Positions 17,310 to 58,863 of a DNA stretch of 64,000 bases are shown piece after piece (position 1 is the first letter of the stretch; the number at the start of each line of letters is the position of its first letter). Location: positions 10,354,001 to 10,418,000 of the forward strand of contig OX597834.1 of NCBI GenBank assembly GCA_951406725.2. Direction: 5' to 3'. The notes beneath the pieces were generated by a model that was given only the letters and a program-made list of their open reading frames with translations, had not been told where the DNA came from and ran no database searches. Source of the stretch: Octopus vulgaris. Lineage: Eukaryota. Position numbers and translations under genes: made by a program.

Positions 17310-18350
17310 TGTTTCTTTATTAGCCACACAGGGCTGCACACAGATAGAACAAATTACAAGGTAGAGCTTTTCTTTTGAAGGTTTAAAAAAAAAAAAATAA
17401 TAAAAATAAAAATAAAGGAAGGGGGAGTTTCGATCAAAAGGGATCGTAAAAGGAGAGAAAGAAGACAAAAAAAGGGGGTTAAAAAAAGGGGGAGAGGAAA
17501 AAAAAAAAAAAATTGATCAATAGGGATCGTTATCACAGAAATGTCAATATGAAGTGTAAAGGGGAGGACAGGTGAGGTTTACCCGTGGAAAGAAAAGCCT
17601 ACGGAAAAGACCACGGTAACCTCGGTCAATGAAGTCACATTTTATATTTCTTTTTTTTTTTTTTTTGCAAATAAGCAACTCTCTGTTTTCGATTTCTGGG
17701 TTCATAGGACTATGCTCAAGGTGGCTTCGTCATTCATACGTGCCATTCTTGCTACATTCACCCATCTTTTTTAAAACATTCGCTAGACAAAACTTGCCTC
17801 TCTACTCTCACTTTCCTTTTCAAGTGGTACTTGAAGAAGTTGATGAGAGATTGACCAGAGAGGAAAGTGTTTGTCTCCAATCCTTTCAGACGCGTCCACC
17901 AGATACATTCTTTCGCCATAGCCACAAGGATGATGAAAATAGCTCTTCCTTCCCGTTTGAAGGAAGGAGGCGTGACAATATTGACGATAGACTCAGCTGA
18001 TAAACCGACTCGTCCCACACGTGACAGCAGTTGTTCGACATAAGCCCACAGGTCGGAAATTGTTGGACACTGAACGAGTGCGTGCAGAACGGTTTCGTCG
18101 CTCTGACCGCATCTCGGGCAGGTCGGCCCCGTGTTTCTCGAGCCGTGTCTGTAGAGCTTATCCCGAACGGGTAGCGCTTCTCGGTAGCACTGCCAGGCCA
18201 GGGATCTCTGGAAGTTGTCCATGGGCCCTGGCCCGAAAGTCGTCCTGAACAGGCGGGTCAGGTACTCCTCGTCGACGTCCAGGTTCGCCCCGAGCTCGTC
18301 GTCGTACCTCCCCTCCACTAAACCCCTATAGAATGCTTTGGTTGTGTTGA
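17309..18350 (-). mobile_element. 3' fragment of an L1/Tx1-like LINE within a (GATA)n array
   Basis: ORF 17758-18318 contains the CCHC zinc-binding motif CPRCGQSDETVLHALVQCP typical of LINE ORF2 C-termini. The 3' UTR ends AATAAAGAAAC followed by (ATCT)n. GC-rich relative to flanks. Confidence 0.85.
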
Positions 18351-18351
18351 A

Positions 18352-18412
<61 letters not shown>

Positions 18413-18413
18413 G

Positions 18414-18452
<39 letters not shown>

Positions 18453-18453
18453 G

Positions 18454-18492
<39 letters not shown>

Positions 18493-18493
18493 G

Positions 18494-18532
<39 letters not shown>

Positions 18533-18533
18533 G

Positions 18534-18580
<47 letters not shown>

Positions 18581-18625
18581 CAGAGAGAGAGATAGATAGA
18601 TAGATAGATAGATAGACAGAGAGAG

Positions 18626-18703
<78 letters not shown>

Positions 18704-18710
18704 AAAGATA
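18352..18710. repeat. (GATA/GACA)n tetranucleotide array
   Basis: Direct reading; partner array at 17231-17308 on the other side of the LINE fragment. Confidence 0.97.
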
Positions 18711-18986
18711 GACCGATGAAGTAACTTTATAGAGTAAGTCACAAATTTATCACACAGGTGTATATTTATGGAAAGTAAGTGAATAAAATGAACTAGCGTC
18801 ATGAATGACGCGTTTATCATTTGAGTTTTACCTTTATTTTATCATAGTGCAAACACAAACACACTTCCAGAAATATATGTGTATATACATATACGTTTGG
18901 TGGTCGAAGCAGGATAAATGGATGTTGCTACGCCAAAAAAAGTGGCCTATGCATATTTTATGATTCAGGTGTAAACATACAATGAC

Positions 18987-46237: not shown

Positions 46238-46323
46238 GCCTCGGTAGCGCAGTAGGCAGCGCGTCAGTCTCATAATCCAAAGTTATCGTCGAGCCATCGG
46301 GAGTTCGATCCTCACCCGGGGCA
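46238..46323 (+). pseudogene. Elongator tRNA-Met(CAT) pseudogene with a 13-nt insertion
   Basis: GCCTCGGTAGCGCAGTAGGCAGCGCGTCAGTCTCATAATC...GAGTTCGATCCTCACCCGGGGCA. Acceptor stem GCCTCGG/CCGGGGC and anticodon CAT at 46271-46273 are intact. The 3' side of the anticodon stem is mutated, length is 86 nt versus about 73, and a T9 run follows. Confidence 0.85.
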
Positions 46324-47252: not shown

Positions 47253-49394
47253 GGAAAGAGAGGGAGGGAGGGAGAGAGATAGATAGATAGTTATCAATAA
47301 TATATAAATATATGCATATATATTTACATACATGTACATACCTATATATATGTATATATACATGCATATATGGGTGCAGGACATTAAAAAAAAACGAAAA
47401 AACGTTGAACAAAATGAGAAACGAAAACATAAAAACAAAAATAGAAACGAACTTTTTCCCGAACAACGAAAAAATTAAAAACATACAAACAGAGAAACGA
47501 GAAATACAACATAAAGAATATTCCCTTTCTTAAGTTGTCCCTGTTTCAAGTATTCCACGTGTAGAGGGCAAGGACAAGACGCAACTTCTTGAAACAGTCC
47601 TTCCCGCAAATCAAATTAAATAAAATTGGGATTTTTTGCGGAGGGTGAAAGTGGTAACAAGAACAGGACAGTGAGAGCAAAAAAAGTAAAAACAATAAAA
47701 AAATAAAAACAGTAAAAAACAGTACAATGAGAACAAAACAGTAAAAACAAATGGTGAGGGTTGTTAAGCCAAGACGATGGGAAAATTATTCTGAATATTT
47801 AAGAAGACGAGCTTATGAAGGGACAGTATAAGCACGTTTAGTCTTTACGAAGGTAGTAGTCAGAAAGATAGATTCCCTCTCGTCACATGTCAATGACGAG
47901 GGAGCCGAGGAGAAGGAGTGAGAGAGAGGGAGTGGTGAAGTGGAGAGGAGAAGAATAGGGAAGGGTGGGAGAGGAAAGCAGAAAGAATGAAGAACAAGAG
48001 GGGGGGGAAAGATAAACAGAGAAGAGATAGTAAAGATAGAAGAGCGCGCATCGTAATTATTAAGATAAAACTTGGAAAATGATGCGTGGCGTTCGATCAT
48101 ATAATAACATAAATAATATATATATATACGGACACATAAATATATATGTATATAGATATATACTTAGATCGATCGATCGATAAATAGATAGATAGATAGA
48201 GGGGAGAGAGATATAAAGAGAGAGATTTTTTATAATTCAATCTTATGATGTTACATATTTAAAGAAAGGAAATATTAAAAAAGAAAAAAATTAGGCAGTG
48301 AGTTCTAAGTCCCAATGAAGCTATGCGTGTTTTGTTTTTAGTGTAAAACGATTTATGAACAAGAAATATGTGTGTGCGTGTGTAAATATATGTATATATT
48401 TGTGTATGTTTTTGTGCGAATATGTGTGCGTGTTTGAACGTATGTATGTAAGTATGTGTATCTTTTATCCGTGCTATTTGACGGAAGAAAAATCTATATT
48501 TGTATATTGGGAGCTAATATATGTCTGTACTGTACAAAATAACTTTTTCCAGAAAACATACGAAATATAATAAAAAATGAGCTATATTAAATAAAAAAGA
48601 AATCTATAAGGCAATAGCCGAATAAGAATACATATATACAAAACATGATTGTTAGTAATTCCCAAGAAGATAATAATTTTTTTGTCCAAAAAATATATTT
48701 ATAAGAAAATATTATCAACGCTGCTAGATGAAGACAAGAATAGCATTATATTAAGAAAATATAATGTTGAATATTCTTTAATTTTCCGTTTTCCTTATGA
48801 TGGAATGATATCAAACCTTCTTATATGTCTAAACACTTATCCATACAAAAGCAACTGGAAGTAAATGTCATTTTATTTCCCGAAAAACTTGAATGCCTCG
48901 GCATTTTTTAAATAATTTTTCTATAAAATAAAATGATTCGTCGGTATTTTTTCTTAGGCAAAGAAATAATGTAGAATATCCAAATATGATAAAAAAAGAA
49001 ATACCGAAAGAAAAAAGAAAAATAATAAATAAAATACACAAAAATATTTGGAATGGATCCATGCACTTCGCCAGTTTAGCTGTCCTTATTGTTCTTTGAA
49101 ATAACTTTACAAGGCAGACAAATCAATGTATGAAATATTTTCATGATTTGAGAGTCATAATAGTAATGAAAGAAACGATGTAACATCATTAAAGAGACAG
49201 CGTATGTTACGCTTATAGAGGAAACTTCTAAGAAAGCGTTGTGCTTGAATCGTAGTAGACAAAATCTATGATACTAAATACCAAGGCTAGATGCATGCAT
49301 ATAGTGACGCGAATCCACGCTCACAAGCACACATTTAATATGTACGTGTGTGGGCGTAGCTCTCTCTTCCTCTTCCCCTTATTCTCTATATATT

Positions 49395-49840
49395 TAGTGA
49401 ATGCAATTGTCTTCCCAATAGCAACATATGAATGCGAGACCTGGACACTAAAGAAAGCTGACCAGAAGAGAATTAATGCATTCAAGCATTGGTGTTGGAG
49501 AAGACTTTTACGGATTTCATGGACAGCGAGGCTCACCAATGGAGAAGTTCTTACGCAGATCAGGCCGAAAATGTCGCTAGAAAATGTCACCAAGCATAGA
49601 TTGGCATATTTCGGTCATATTATGCGGAGAAAATCCCTGGAGAAAGACATCATGCTCGGAATGGTCCGTGGCAAGAGAGGAAGAGGCCGACCAAGAACCC
49701 ACTGGCTTGACACCATCAAGAGTGATACCGGAATGGACATAGCCAATCTGAAGGAAGCGGCCCAGGATAGCACTGACTGGAGGACACTGATCCAACGAGT
49801 AACCGAGAGACGACTTCGACTGAGCGGATAGATAGATAGT
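49395..49840 (+). mobile_element. RTE-clade LINE 3' fragment
   Basis: VFPIATYECETWTLKKADQKRINAFKHWCWRRLLRISWTAR...YFGHIMRRKSLEKDIMLGMVRGKRGRGRP, the RTE/Bov-B-type C-terminus, followed by a (GATA)n tail. Confidence 0.9.
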
Positions 49841-55009: not shown

Positions 55010-55235
55010 GATTCTGATGTCCCAACATATAAAAAAATGGCAAACTTTATGCAATCCACGACACCGTCTGTGTACGTCTCCTCTTCGCGGGAGGCAGTAC
55101 AGCGAGTACTCAAAGAGAATTACGCTTATCTTGGAGAATCAACATCAATTGATTACCAGGTGCAAAGAAACTGCCAACTTATGCAAGTTGGTGGTTTGCT
55201 GGATTCCAAAGGATACGGAATTGCTACTCCAAGGG
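55010..55235 (+). CDS. Same iGluR gene, S2 ligand-binding domain exon
   Basis: Translates DSDVPTYKKMANFMQSTTPSVYVSSSREAVQRVLKENYAYLGESTSIDYQVQRNCQLMQVGGLLDSKGYGIATPR(G). Acceptor tttttccag|GAT (phase 0, matching the previous donor), donor AGG G|gtaagt (phase 1). 226 bp. Confidence 0.97.
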
Positions 55236-55489
55236 GTAAGTAAGATACGCAGTTTCTGGTCCTTTTTTACAAACTATTCTTCCTCATCGCCTTCTACTTC
55301 TGTGTTAATAATAAGAACATTAACGATAGTTGAGATGCAGATAAAGAAAGAACAAAAATTAGTGGATAACGAAATTGCAGGCAAATTTATTTACATCACT
55401 CTACAATTCCCGTTTTTAATACTTTGAAATTGTACAATATTTAAACTGTGGCTCATTTATACACGCACAAACAAAACCCACACACACTC

Positions 55490-55858
55490 ATTTACTTGTG
55501 ACTGTGGCCATACTGGAGCATCGCTTTAGTCTAGCAAATCGACCCCAGGACTTATTCTTTGTAAGCCTAGTACATATTCTATCGGTCTCTTTTGCCGAAC
55601 CGTTAAGGTTGTCAAGCGATGTAGGAGGGCACACACACACAAACACACACACATATGTATCTATATATATATATATATCTATATGCATATATATGACGGG
55701 TTTCTTTCAGTTTCCGTCTACCAAATCCACTCAAAAGATTTTTGGTTGGCCCGGGGCTATAGTAGAAGACACTTGCCCTTGGTGCCACGCAGTGGGACTG
55801 AACCCGGATCAATGTGGTTCGTGAGCAAGCTAATTACCGCACAGCCACTTCTACGCCT
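55490..55858 (-). mobile_element. SINE family A copy
   Basis: Reverse-complement match with small deletions, about 255 bp downstream of the S2 exon. Confidence 0.88.
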
Positions 55859-55863
55859 ATACA

Positions 55864-55899
<36 letters not shown>

Positions 55900-56449
55900 T
55901 ATATATACATACAAACACACATGCATACAGACACACACACACATATATATATATACTGCATGTAGATACTTTATTCATCAATTGATATAAACCTATCTCA
56001 CGGCAAAAGAAGCGAAAGTATCTAGAAAGGCTATAGCTACTCCTTTGCTTCGTGTATAAGAATATCAAATGGATATTCACTAAGAACCGCTTTGGGTTTC
56101 TGACTTACGCCGTATCAAAGGTTATGGCCCTCAAGGAATTTCATGCAAATTAATCAAATAAGGTTGTTGTTTATTTAATTCAATACCTGTTATTGCCAGC
56201 TAATTAGTATTTGAATTAACGCAATTTTTTATGAATAATTAAAGTGTTACAAAATTACATTAGCATATTGATTCAAAACTGAACAGAATAAAAATTAAAG
56301 AATATATAGGTAAATGAAAATATTAAGCAATTATATTGCGGAGGAAATTTATTAGTAATTAGAAATACGTCACTGAATTGTGAAATATTCAATCGCAGTT
56401 TTGCAACCTTGTCACGGATGCAATTATGCTGCATTTGAGATGGTCCGTT

Positions 56450-56759
56450 TTGTTTGCTCCTTCTCGAGCCATGCCTGGCTCATTAGGGCCGGATTTCCGG
56501 TTTCCTTGGCGGCGTGTAGGTTCCCCTCCTGGACGGGTCGCCGGTCCGTCGCAGGTGAGCTGCAAGATGCAGGAGGGAAAGAGTGAGAGAAAGTTGTGGC
56601 GAAAGAGTCAGTAGAAGTTAATCATTACCTTTGAGGCCGGAGCCGCGTGGAGCTTAGGTGTTTTGCTCATAAACACACACATCGCCCGGTCTGAGATTCG
56701 AACCCGCGATCCATCGACCGCGAGTCTGCTGCTCTAACCACTAGGCCATGTGCCTCCAC
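56450..56759 (-). mobile_element. Family C-related SINE with a third tail type
   Basis: tRNA-like head at 56690-56759 and shared gagtgagagaaagttgtgg. The tail resembles 7975-8065. TSD AGATGGTCCGTT. Confidence 0.85.
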
Positions 56760-57405
56760 AGATGGTCCGTTGAAGGATATTGTCCACGATGTAACAATTT
56801 ACATCTGTCATTCGCAACACTAACCCACAATACTGGTTTTGCACCTCCCTTCATTAATACTCAAATGGAAATTAAGTTTTATATGCCTTTCATTTAAGTT
56901 CGATGCAACGAATAGTTTATACTATGGCTGTGTGGATAAGAGGCTTGCTTTGCAACCATGTGGTTTTGGGTTCAGTTCTAGTATGTGGCACCTTGGGCAA
57001 GTGTTTACTTCTATATGAAATTTATGTCACTTATTTTACTCTTTGTTTTGAGACGTCTTCGCTTTTGTAATTCATCCCGTCTCAGTATAATAACAAAATA
57101 TGGAAATCCAGCCAGTCATCTATACCACCTCTGAAACTATCCTACTACGTACTCAGTAAATATATTTATCTCTAAGATTATTATTTTCGGATTGCCCAAG
57201 GGACAACTTTACGTCAGAGCGATAAAATATTCTCTGTCCATATCAGACAATTGTAAAATGAAACAATCATAAAGTCAATATAACATTTATTACTGTTTCT
57301 TAAATGCGTAGATATGACATTACTATTGCGAAGTTTTTAAATTTCAATAAGGTCTCATTTCAAGTCACATTCTAAAGAAGTATTTGTCCGATGTATCTCT
57401 CTAAT

Positions 57406-57517
57406 TCACATTAAGTTGATAGTATGCAACCACTCTATCGCTCCAACACCGCACATATCTCTGAGATATTTAGAAATTTAATATTTCTGAATTTGGTGAT
57501 CAGTGAATAAACTTCAC

Positions 57518-57573
<56 letters not shown>

Positions 57574-57879
57574 TACGAAGTCTAGACACATATCTTCAGC
57601 TAGCAGGCCTTGCTACTCTAGACTGATGATGGGCAAGACCCAGAAACATGTATGTCTCTAGATGCAGGCCTAGCTGTTGGGGCTGTTTGTCTCCCCTTCG
57701 TAAATATATAAGGATATAGGAAATGTGTCAAGGCCGGCAGGAAGCGTCGATGCTTCCTAGGGCTAAATAGCGGTGGTGTCATTCCATTTACGGGACTGTC
57801 ACATTAAGTTGACAGTATACAACCACTCTATCTCCACCACCGCACATATCTCTATGAGATATTTAGAAATTTAATATTT
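57406..57879 (+). mobile_element. Retrozyme-like small non-coding element: about 393-bp unit plus about 80-bp terminal redundancy, containing the hammerhead
   Basis: Imperfect direct repeats at 57406-57486 and 57799-57879 (tcacattaagttga...gagatatttagaaatttaatattt). Between them: (TA)n, the hammerhead rod and several hairpins. No ORF. Confidence 0.65.
57617..57662 (+). ncRNA. Type I hammerhead ribozyme with intact catalytic core, sense to the iGluR intron
   Basis: TCTAGA-CTGATGA-TGGG caaga CCCA-GAAA-CAT gt ATG-TC-TCTAGA: stem I TCTAGA/TCTAGA, core CUGAUGA, 4-bp stem II, GAAA, short stem III, GUC triplet (predicted cut after C57656). Stem I extends imperfectly out to about 57565/57710. Confidence 0.88.
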
Positions 57880-57915
57880 ACGAATAAATATATAGATTAT
57901 AATTTACTATCATAT

Positions 57916-57963
57916 GCCTTGTTAGTGGATTTGTGAGACGGAAACTGAAAGAAGCCTGTCGTA

Positions 57964-58014
<51 letters not shown>

Positions 58015-58238
58015 GTGTTTGTTTGTGTGTCTGTGTTTGTGTGTCTGTGTTTGTCCCTCTAGCATTGCTTGACAACCGATGCTGGTGTGTTTGTGTCTCC
58101 GTTACTTAGCGGTTCGGCAAAAGAGACCGATAGAATAAGTACTAGGCTTACAAAAGTATAAGTCCGGGGTCGAGTTGCTCGATTAAAGGCGGTGCTCCAG
58201 CATGACCGCAGTCAAATGACTGAAACAAGTAATAGAAT
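57916..58238 (+). mobile_element. SINE family A copy, 5'-truncated
   Basis: Begins at gccttgttagtggatttg and runs to the tail. Confidence 0.88.
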
Positions 58239-58597
58239 ATGTTTATGTATACATGGCTGTTCCTTTCTGTAATTACAACAAAATTTGAAGGTAATCAATA
58301 AATGAAAGAATAATGGTATAAATTATCCTACTTTATCAGGTATTAATCATTTACGAATGTCTATTATATTTAAAATGTTATTTCTTTCGAGACTGTATAC
58401 ATTTCAGCACTTTTGACAATAATCTCGCTCCATCATTCTAGGTGTAGTAAGCCTCCTTTAGATTCAAACTCCGATTTTGGTGAACAGTTGTCAGTTACAA
58501 AATTCTAGTGTATAATAGTTTAGCCAAGATAATCGCTTTTGCTTTTGTTACGTTGCAAATAATTATTGTGTCTTTTCTTTTGTTATATTTTAAACAG

Positions 58598-58863
58598 GAT
58601 CTCCTTATCGGGATATGATCTCAGAGAAAATATTATTTCTTCAAGAAAGACAAGAAATTAGCAAGCTTTACACCAAATGGTGGAAAGAAAAAGCAGCTAA
58701 TAAGTGTGACAATGAGTCCAAAGGAAAGCAAAACGCGAACGAGCTAGGCCTTCAGAACGTTGGGGGCGTTTTCGTGGTGCTTATGGCCGGAGTGGTCGCT
58801 GGCACAATTATGGCTATTTTTGAATTCTTGTGGAAGTCATGGAGAAATTCCAGAATTGACAAG
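58598..58863 (+). CDS. Same iGluR gene, end of S2 plus M4 transmembrane exon
   Basis: Translates (G)SPYRDMISEKILFLQERQEISKLYTKWWKEKAANKCDNESKGKQNANELGLQNVGGVFVVLMAGVVAGTIMAIFEFLWKSWRNSRIDK. Acceptor taaacag|GA (phase 1, matching), donor AAG|gtaaga. 266 bp. GSPYRD and LGLQNVGGVF resemble kainate-type subunits. No downstream C-terminal exon was recognised in the window. Confidence 0.96.

Follow-up and report, generated by a model that had tools for sequence, protein, structure and literature searches.

Non-LTR retrozymes of metazoans are the closest described counterparts of the element considered here, with units of 350-390 bp in mussels and 330/350 bp in the axolotl (Cervera and de la Pena 2020; PMC7229834). 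As characterized in the relevant sections of that account, they are non-coding units with a GC content below 50% and a canonical type I hammerhead with a short palindromic helix III, found as tandem and solo copies with a stable predicted circle and co-occurring Penelope-like elements. A family of Octopus vulgaris, with units of 348-366 nt, displays each of these features and, like HHR_Amex2 of the axolotl, a weak or mismatched 10.1-11.1 pair. Unlike the retrozymes of that account, the octopus family is new in sequence, is mostly solo or 5'-truncated with 2-3 units in the longest arrays seen, and shows a Penelope-type tail and inversions with no recognisable target-site duplications; its circle is predicted only. 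By its testable traits, the family is a non-LTR retrozyme, a new sequence family of a known element type.

Penelope-like elements offer a second comparison. Two preferred 3' ends and an optional tail by an AC-rich stem-loop, together with 5' truncation, inverted 5' copies, partial tandems, microsatellite flanks and a type I hammerhead, feature in the pertinent parts of three papers (PMC4209133, PMC8557442, PMC11167929) and in the octopus copies alike, whereas the octopus unit lacks an RT/GIY-YIG ORF and its hammerhead is canonical rather than minimal (PMC4209133). The octopus tail is ~48 nt long, compared to 30-40 nt in the portion of the literature that reports it for Penelope-like elements.

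The third comparison is with the intronic ribozymes of vertebrates, namely the HDV-like ribozyme of CPEB3 and the amniote hammerheads, which share with the octopus locus a single self-cleaving motif in the sense orientation within an intron, in this case that of a neuronal receptor gene. These vertebrate ribozymes are single-copy and conserved across species, whereas the octopus motif lies among hundreds of 90-98% identical copies in a complete mobile unit, and it therefore lacks the single-copy state of a domesticated intronic ribozyme. The original prediction had implied a special status for it as a CPEB3-like neuronal regulator, a suggestion that lacks support, as it is one of hundreds of near-identical hammerheads lying equally on both strands. 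One section of a recent preprint puts the share of Xenopus retrozyme copies that overlap introns at 42-44% (bioRxiv 10.64898/2026.07.22.740005). No description of a cephalopod retrozyme was found in full-text literature searches, and supplementary datasets (e.g. Dataset S1 of PMC3088659) and repeat libraries may list one; the word "ribozyme" is absent from the main text of the 2026 Octopus vulgaris repeat paper (PMC13282606).

The window, the whole 64-kb stretch of O. vulgaris DNA that was analysed, contains a kainate-like ionotropic glutamate receptor (iGluR) gene on the + strand, whose M3 exon matches Lig_chan (E 4e-23, + strand). The hammerhead resides on the transcribed strand of one of its introns, as originally predicted, with the Lig_chan and GluK2 matches both on +. 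The host features around it are:

55010..55235, + strand: iGluR exon preceding the intron, which its translation and position mark as the S2 ligand-binding segment, with no Pfam ligand-channel match by itself
55236..58597, + strand: host intron, 3362 nt, GT..AG, phase 1
58598..58863, + strand: iGluR exon covering M4 and the end of S2, nearest among solved structures to kainate receptor GluK2 (E 2.5e-17)

The M4 exon begins 942 nt downstream of the predicted cut, in agreement with the distance of about 940 nt first given. Direct reading of the window sequence reveals a canonical type I hammerhead on the + (sense) strand, its core coordinates and type I anatomy exactly as originally predicted, and by the canonical core pattern it is the single hammerhead in the 64 kb. 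Its parts are:

57572..57704, + strand: bulged rod prolonging stem I, common to the whole retrozyme family
57611..57622, + strand: stem I 5' strand, comprising a distal 3 bp, the UAC bulge at 57614-57616 and a proximal 6 bp
57617-57622, + strand: stem I proximal helix, UCUAGA pairing with 57657-57662, 6 bp
57623-57629, + strand: hammerhead core CUGAUGA, read from sequence
57630-57642, + strand: stem II UGGG/CCCA (U-A and 3 G-C) with the 5-nt loop CAAGA, pair 10.1-11.1 variable across the family
57643-57646, + strand: GAAA core segment, read from sequence
57646-57655, + strand: stem III ACA/UGU, 3 bp, tetraloop UGUA, read from sequence
57654-57656, + strand: GUC site, C17 = 57656, predicted cut after 57656
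57657..57666, + strand: stem I 3' strand, U57663 unpaired and facing the UAC bulge, from sequence and family comparison

The motif contains the full conserved core set of type I hammerheads (C3 U4 G5 A6 N7 G8 A9, G12 A13 A14, A15.1-U16.1, H17), and its three helices, with helix I open, are backed by covariation, of which the invariant stem III gives none. Two caveats raised at the outset hold: stem III is short, with 3 bp and a tetraloop, and the first stem II pair is U-A, a family trait, the 10.1-11.1 pair being UA in 31, UU in 19, CA in 15 and GA in 1 of 66 copies. The extension of stem I into a bulged rod, likewise anticipated, is matched by a rod fold of -55.1 kcal/mol (z = -4.29; 0/200 shuffles as stable). 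The folding check proposed with the prediction thus bore out an unusually stable rod and did not bear out the active hammerhead as the favoured monomer fold, which in all contexts tried lies 1.4 kcal/mol above the minimum under a model that omits tertiary energy; in the monomer ensemble, stem III has a pair probability of 0.03-0.04 under a model omitting tertiary contacts. The UAC bulge presumably contacts loop II. Its T and A are invariant in 40/40 rows of a hand-picked alignment of four subfamilies, its position 6 bp from the core is kept across subfamilies, and its geometry fits the canonical description in the corresponding section of PMC4209133.

A loose core pattern matches once in the 64-kb window, where 4.86 matches would be expected, and is not beyond chance alone; judged by covariation across relatives, the hammerhead stems are beyond chance. 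The Rfam scan of the window returned no hammerhead match at the gathering score or at E<=10, the same outcome as for the Hammerhead_1 check that had been recommended, and the Hammerhead_1 and clan models gave no match to the family hammerhead in four family loci. MiRNA-like Rfam matches were rejected as artefacts of AT repeats.

The original prediction overlooked the larger dispersed repeat that contains the motif. Within the 2.8-Gb genome (227 contigs), a search with the 141-nt rod gave 1307 first-look candidates, and scoring of 40 candidates gave 40 other near-full-length copies of 95-98% identity on many contigs. An exact 33-mer across the core has 60 genome matches, a subfamily-specific 16-mer 93 (at least one, L073, a chance match), and an exact 26-mer of the subfamily C core 470. 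An exact 18-nt hammerhead word common to subfamilies A and B occurs 526 times (264+/262-; reversed control 1) and an exact 19-mer near the 3' end 958 times (492+/466-; reversed control 0), so that the strand balance of family words is even genome-wide.

The 3'-word search also yielded 223 unit-spaced head-to-tail pairs, mostly in subfamilies other than A/B; in the 30 of these that were fetched, units measure 348-366 nt and the longest arrays seen have 2-3 units. Two hammerheads stand in tandem at five distinct loci (L166/167, L169, L171/172, L184 and L190, among L161-L190), mainly in subfamilies C and D. The genome therefore contains head-to-tail repeats with at least two hammerheads, as retrozymes do, outside the window copy's own subfamily: exact words, which miss decayed arrays, find 0 two-hammerhead dimers in subfamilies A/B, the window copy's included; one older pair is L153. 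The unit is non-coding, falls within 150-450 bp and bears one type I hammerhead, and natural units, with a GC content of 37-44% and hence below 50%, fold as stable predicted circles (z -6.8 to -8.3, 40 shuffles each). The loci examined show no ORF tied to the unit, and the dispersed multicopy family has neither an ORF nor LTRs flanking an internal region, its terminal direct repeat being a partial unit. Some candidates were set aside: a 337-nt pair at L005 is not a clean dimer, its second copy being truncated, and same-strand hammerhead pairs 2-6 kb apart are not pLTR-ORF-pLTR elements, two being segmental duplications and a third consisting of separate copies with LINE ORFs between.

The copy in the window comprises the following features:

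57406..57879, + strand: non-LTR retrozyme insertion, 474 nt, 1.2 units
57406..57486, + strand: 5' partial unit, direct repeat of 57799-57879 with 3 substitutions and 2 small indels
57521..57571, no strand: (AT)n tract internal to the unit, longer than in most siblings
57808..57831, + strand: small stem-loop and AC-rich run, site of the first 3'-end cluster at +167..+178 from the cut
57832..57879, + strand: optional tail of ~48 nt, ending at the second 3'-end cluster at +223

The first 81 nt of the insertion repeat its last 81 nt, a wrap-around past one unit length, and no target-site duplication is recognised around 57406..57879. The unit is 393 nt long here, compared to 348-366 nt in other copies, because of the expanded (AT)n. 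The stem-loop at 57808..57831 would be a first start of reverse transcription, by analogy with elements described in part of PMC11167929, and the end of the tail a second. The 3' junction at window 57880-57895 resembles two rod ends joined with the interior skipped, possibly a short template jump during insertion.

Compared to the majority of 60 close alignments, the window copy differs at 11/308 positions, about 8 of them private (2.6%; private variants include those at 57589, 57651 and 57683), which would place its insertion roughly 7 My ago if the rate of PMC13282606 applies (JC 0.09 = 25 My). The sole private change inside its ribozyme is C>U at 57651, and among the 60 genome-wide matches of the 33-mer across the core, T at this position occurs in the window copy only. 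Stem III of most siblings is a perfect 10-nt palindrome, which this change breaks, and helix III of the dimer is predicted at -6.4 rather than -13.3 kcal/mol; no second hammerhead lies near the window copy. Of its differences, 1 falls in the 56-nt ribozyme and 10 in the 252 nt outside, a comparison without power (p = 0.70), and these differences give evidence for neither neutrality nor constraint of the copy itself. Family contigs from three sequencing runs, presumed to be RNA, all have C at 57651 and none the window T, although such contigs are uninformative as to ends, strand, circles or absence; one of them stops at 57657, where a graph branch point is as likely as a cleaved end.

Copy ends were mapped on the window copy, using 49 distinct loci chosen by similarity and 24 distinct loci in contig order, with same-place duplicates dropped. 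The 5' ends are ragged and the 3' ends form two clusters, at +167..+178 and at about +223 from the cut, ~48 nt apart. Among the contig-order loci, 12/24 carry an inverted 5' piece and 11/24 stop short of the hammerhead. An earlier figure of 10:1 for 5' truncation, from 958 vs 93, was rejected, as the 16-mer belongs to one subfamily; fairer measures are 958 vs 526 and the 11/24 loci. A script sorted 62 3' ends into 32 without the tail, 25 with it and 5 that continue into the next unit, and a microsatellite directly follows 30/57 copies that stop at the 3' end. Copies longer than one unit (L032, L033, L042, L161-L190) continue into the same unit and not into an ORF.

By analogy, these ragged ends, inversions, two 3' ends and microsatellite flanks are the footprint of Penelope-like retrotransposition, and the tail, 5' truncation, inversions and microsatellites match the copies described in the relevant parts of PMC8557442 and PMC11167929. 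According to those same parts, the enzyme of a Penelope-like element makes its cut in AT-rich DNA and has two start sites close together, both internal and in an AC-rich stem-loop; inversions, partial tandems and a tail that is optional are the products. The retrozyme has a like stem-loop at its first 3'-end cluster.

An endonuclease-like fragment, which has no Pfam match itself and which we take from its motifs to be Penelope-type, has 14,276 candidates in the genome; with this label, Penelope-like elements are plentiful and co-occur with the retrozyme. The fragment beside L048 was rejected as part of the unit, since a microsatellite separates the two and the fragment's relatives have no sequence in common with the unit. 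Comparison with 49 Penelope-like loci of one family likewise gave no shared sequence, and the partner enzyme is therefore putative; 31 recently active Penelope-like families are described in O. vulgaris (PMC13282606). A long-stem-II hammerhead motif occurs in 11/49 of the Penelope-like loci scanned (L114, L115, L118, L120, L123-L125, L127, L128; L116:3930-4010). This Penelope-like type I hammerhead lies a few hundred nt 3' of the end of the endonuclease-like ORF and has a stem II domain of ~55-60 nt and a palindromic helix III. An unrelated small type I hammerhead at L116:958-997 (Rfam Hammerhead_1 29.4 bits, E 0.001, below gathering) is a third hammerhead-bearing family of the genome.

Selection on the ribozyme was assessed in an alignment of 66 copies of subfamilies A and B, from which 28 truncated or redundant rows of 94 matches were left out, and in the hand-picked alignment, whose 40 copies represent four subfamilies only ~75% identical. 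Both sides of a pair have changed at 4/6 stem I pairs in the former; in the latter, where the changes are not independent events, the same is seen at 4/6 stem I and 3/4 stem II pairs, with pairing in 94.9% of cells compared to 13-47% in slid controls. Related sequences inflate such counts, yet the changes still separate the subfamilies cleanly. C3, G5, A6, G8, A9, G12, A13, A14, A15.1 and U16.1 are invariant in 40/40 rows, with U4 the only varying core letter. In the 66 copies, variants shared by at least three copies number 0.09 per column in the core, 0.36 in the stems and 0.50 elsewhere, whereas private changes number 0.82, 0.91 and 0.94, respectively. The covariation of the stems and the rarity of shared core variants indicate that the ribozyme was kept while the element copied itself, and on this comparison it was under selection in the element's lineage; private changes are equal in core and flanks, and inserted copies therefore appear to decay neutrally. 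The core is intact in 49/66 copies and the core and stems in 34/66, fractions inflated because likeness to the core helped to decide which copies were aligned.

The subfamilies differ in features that bear on cleavage. Subfamily C, a young sibling with a 365-nt unit and the commonest source of tandem arrays, has the core CCGAUGA (U4C) and an A-U first stem II pair (L162-L190, e.g. L166:1646-1730 and L166:2011-2095); U4C is present in 97/100 among the subfamily C matches listed, and a second U4C group lies within subfamily A (10/66 rows). As U4C is reported to cut slowly, its near-fixation suggests that low cleavage is tolerated or favoured, and part of PMC3088659 describes U-U at 10.1-11.1, weak palindromic stems III and, for U4C, an activity that is reduced but sufficient. 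Another subfamily (L161, L171-L173, L175, L179, L180, L183, L184) has a unit of ~352 nt and a minimal 6-nt palindromic helix III with two alternative palindromes, so that dimers would be required for cleavage, as in the newt and axolotl motifs.

Very probably, then, the window hammerhead is part of a 474-nt copy of a dispersed, non-coding non-LTR retrozyme of ~360 nt, likely copied from circular or multimeric RNA by a Penelope-like RT/endonuclease, and its presence in the iGluR intron is probably that of a neutral passenger. The family, its arrays, its copy ends and its covariation are observed, and upon them a mechanism can be proposed in which self-cleavage, the circle and the RT partner are predicted parts. 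Head-to-tail arrays with two hammerheads occur in sibling subfamilies, and their transcripts, to judge from published retrozymes, would cleave themselves as monomers or as dimers via the palindromic helix III, after which the cleaved unit would be ligated into a circle (as in the retrozymes covered in part of PMC7229834). The anatomy of the copies suggests a Penelope-type enzyme that nicks DNA where it is AT-rich or microsatellite, and reverse transcription that starts at +175 or +223 from the cut, ~48 nt apart; it would then run toward the 5' end with variable stops, sometimes past one unit, often leaving an inverted 5' piece. The window copy started at +223, extends over 474 nt and has one hammerhead and about 8 private changes in 308 nt. 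Because it is solitary, it presumably cannot excise a circle by itself and, if it cuts the pre-mRNA at all, would do so slowly, as a monomer, with splicing likely to proceed.

The most serious alternative, itself improbable, is co-option of the retrozyme copy, or a modifier role for it: in neurons it would cut the nascent iGluR transcript ahead of M4 exon synthesis, and would lower or shift splicing in the manner of CPEB3 (precedent in part of PMC10274809). The sense orientation, intact core, canonical stem I bulge and single hammerhead in the 64-kb window would suit such a role, as would the cleavage of invertebrate retrozyme monomers at 0.1-0.8 per min (a section of PMC7229834) and the view, put forward in part of PMC7761336, that intronic amniote hammerheads were domesticated from mobile ones. 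The copy nevertheless belongs to a young, high-copy family without genome-wide strand bias, intact cores are usual among its siblings (49/66), the private C>U is predicted to weaken its dimer helix and its active monomer fold is modelled at 1.4 kcal/mol above the minimum. Moreover, a polymerase covers 942 nt in well under a minute at ordinary elongation rates, and with the exon this near would arrive within that time. The corresponding distance at CPEB3 is 9931 nt, with a half-life of 2-3 min (the relevant section of PMC10274809). Hammerhead cuts in introns are reported second-hand not to block splicing, which stays largely efficient, whereas a fast HDV ribozyme does block it (part of PMC2995048, citing Dye 2006 and Fong 2009), and 8/9 predicted Xenopus retrozyme dimers were uncleaved in vitro (a section of bioRxiv 10.64898/2026.07.22.740005). 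An effect on the host gene of a solitary, probably slow hammerhead 942 nt before the exon is accordingly unlikely. Equally improbable is the broader proposal that the copy, inserted a few My ago, cuts nascent pre-mRNA in neurons and tunes receptor output as a ribozyme at an early stage of domestication, with hundreds of sibling insertions supplying cephalopod genes genome-wide with intronic cleavage sites specific to the lineage.

Sense-strand copies lie 0.2-0.9 kb from other host exons as well, one beside a C2H2 zinc-finger exon (L030:1377-1645) and one beside an STK11IP-like PH-domain exon (L049:1501-1824), and the arrangement in the window is therefore not unique. A Pfam scan covering 150/269 candidate ORFs near copies gave 5 host-type matches, 2 with a sense hammerhead (L030, L049), 2 antisense (L068, L080) and 1 without a hammerhead (L134), too few for a test of bias.

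A poorer prospect still is that the unit is the detached pseudo-LTR (pLTR) from the 3' end of an autonomous Penelope-like element, its copies being truncated products of that element with no independent circular RNA. The tail, inversions and partial tandems are indeed those of Penelope-like elements, and Xenopus retrozymes are related to pLTRs in part of the same preprint (bioRxiv 10.64898/2026.07.22.740005). Against this reading, all examined copies that extend beyond one unit run into the same unit and not an ORF, no homology links the unit to the 49 Penelope-like loci of one family, and an RT and GIY-YIG ORF attached to a terminal repeat, as an autonomous Penelope-like element would have, is absent in the loci examined. 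The hammerhead is also canonical, with a 6-bp helix I and bulge and a 4-bp helix II (as described in part of PMC4209133), whereas the Penelope-like motifs found here have a long stem II. That the unit is an ordinary SINE or satellite with incidental or long-dead hammerhead-like letters would accord with the missing Rfam hammerhead match to the window or family motif, an active fold that is not the predicted minimum and the U4C core change of one large subfamily, but is scarcely credible given ten core letters invariant in 40/40 rows and compensatory changes in stems I and II.

Read as one insertion of a mobile retrozyme family, the window locus is ordinary, and the family is of modest value. 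The two-start-site tail and the inversions provide footprint evidence for a so far hypothetical partnership of retrozymes with Penelope-like elements, and the four subfamilies, with natural variation in the 10.1-11.1 pair, the length of helix III and, for one young subfamily, core position 4 (U4C), form a ready-made set on the minimum cleavage that a retrozyme needs. Were the iGluR copy to regulate splicing, it would offer a rare snapshot of ribozyme domestication.

Other sequences of likely mobile origin also reside in the window. A tRNA-like sequence at 46238-46323 (+; Rfam tRNA 38.5 bits), ~190 nt past the M3 exon, is possibly a tRNA-derived SINE head or a pseudogene, and open frames at 17761-18726 (-) and 49259-49828 (+), within iGluR introns, presumably represent C-terminal parts of LINE reverse transcriptases, which they resemble.
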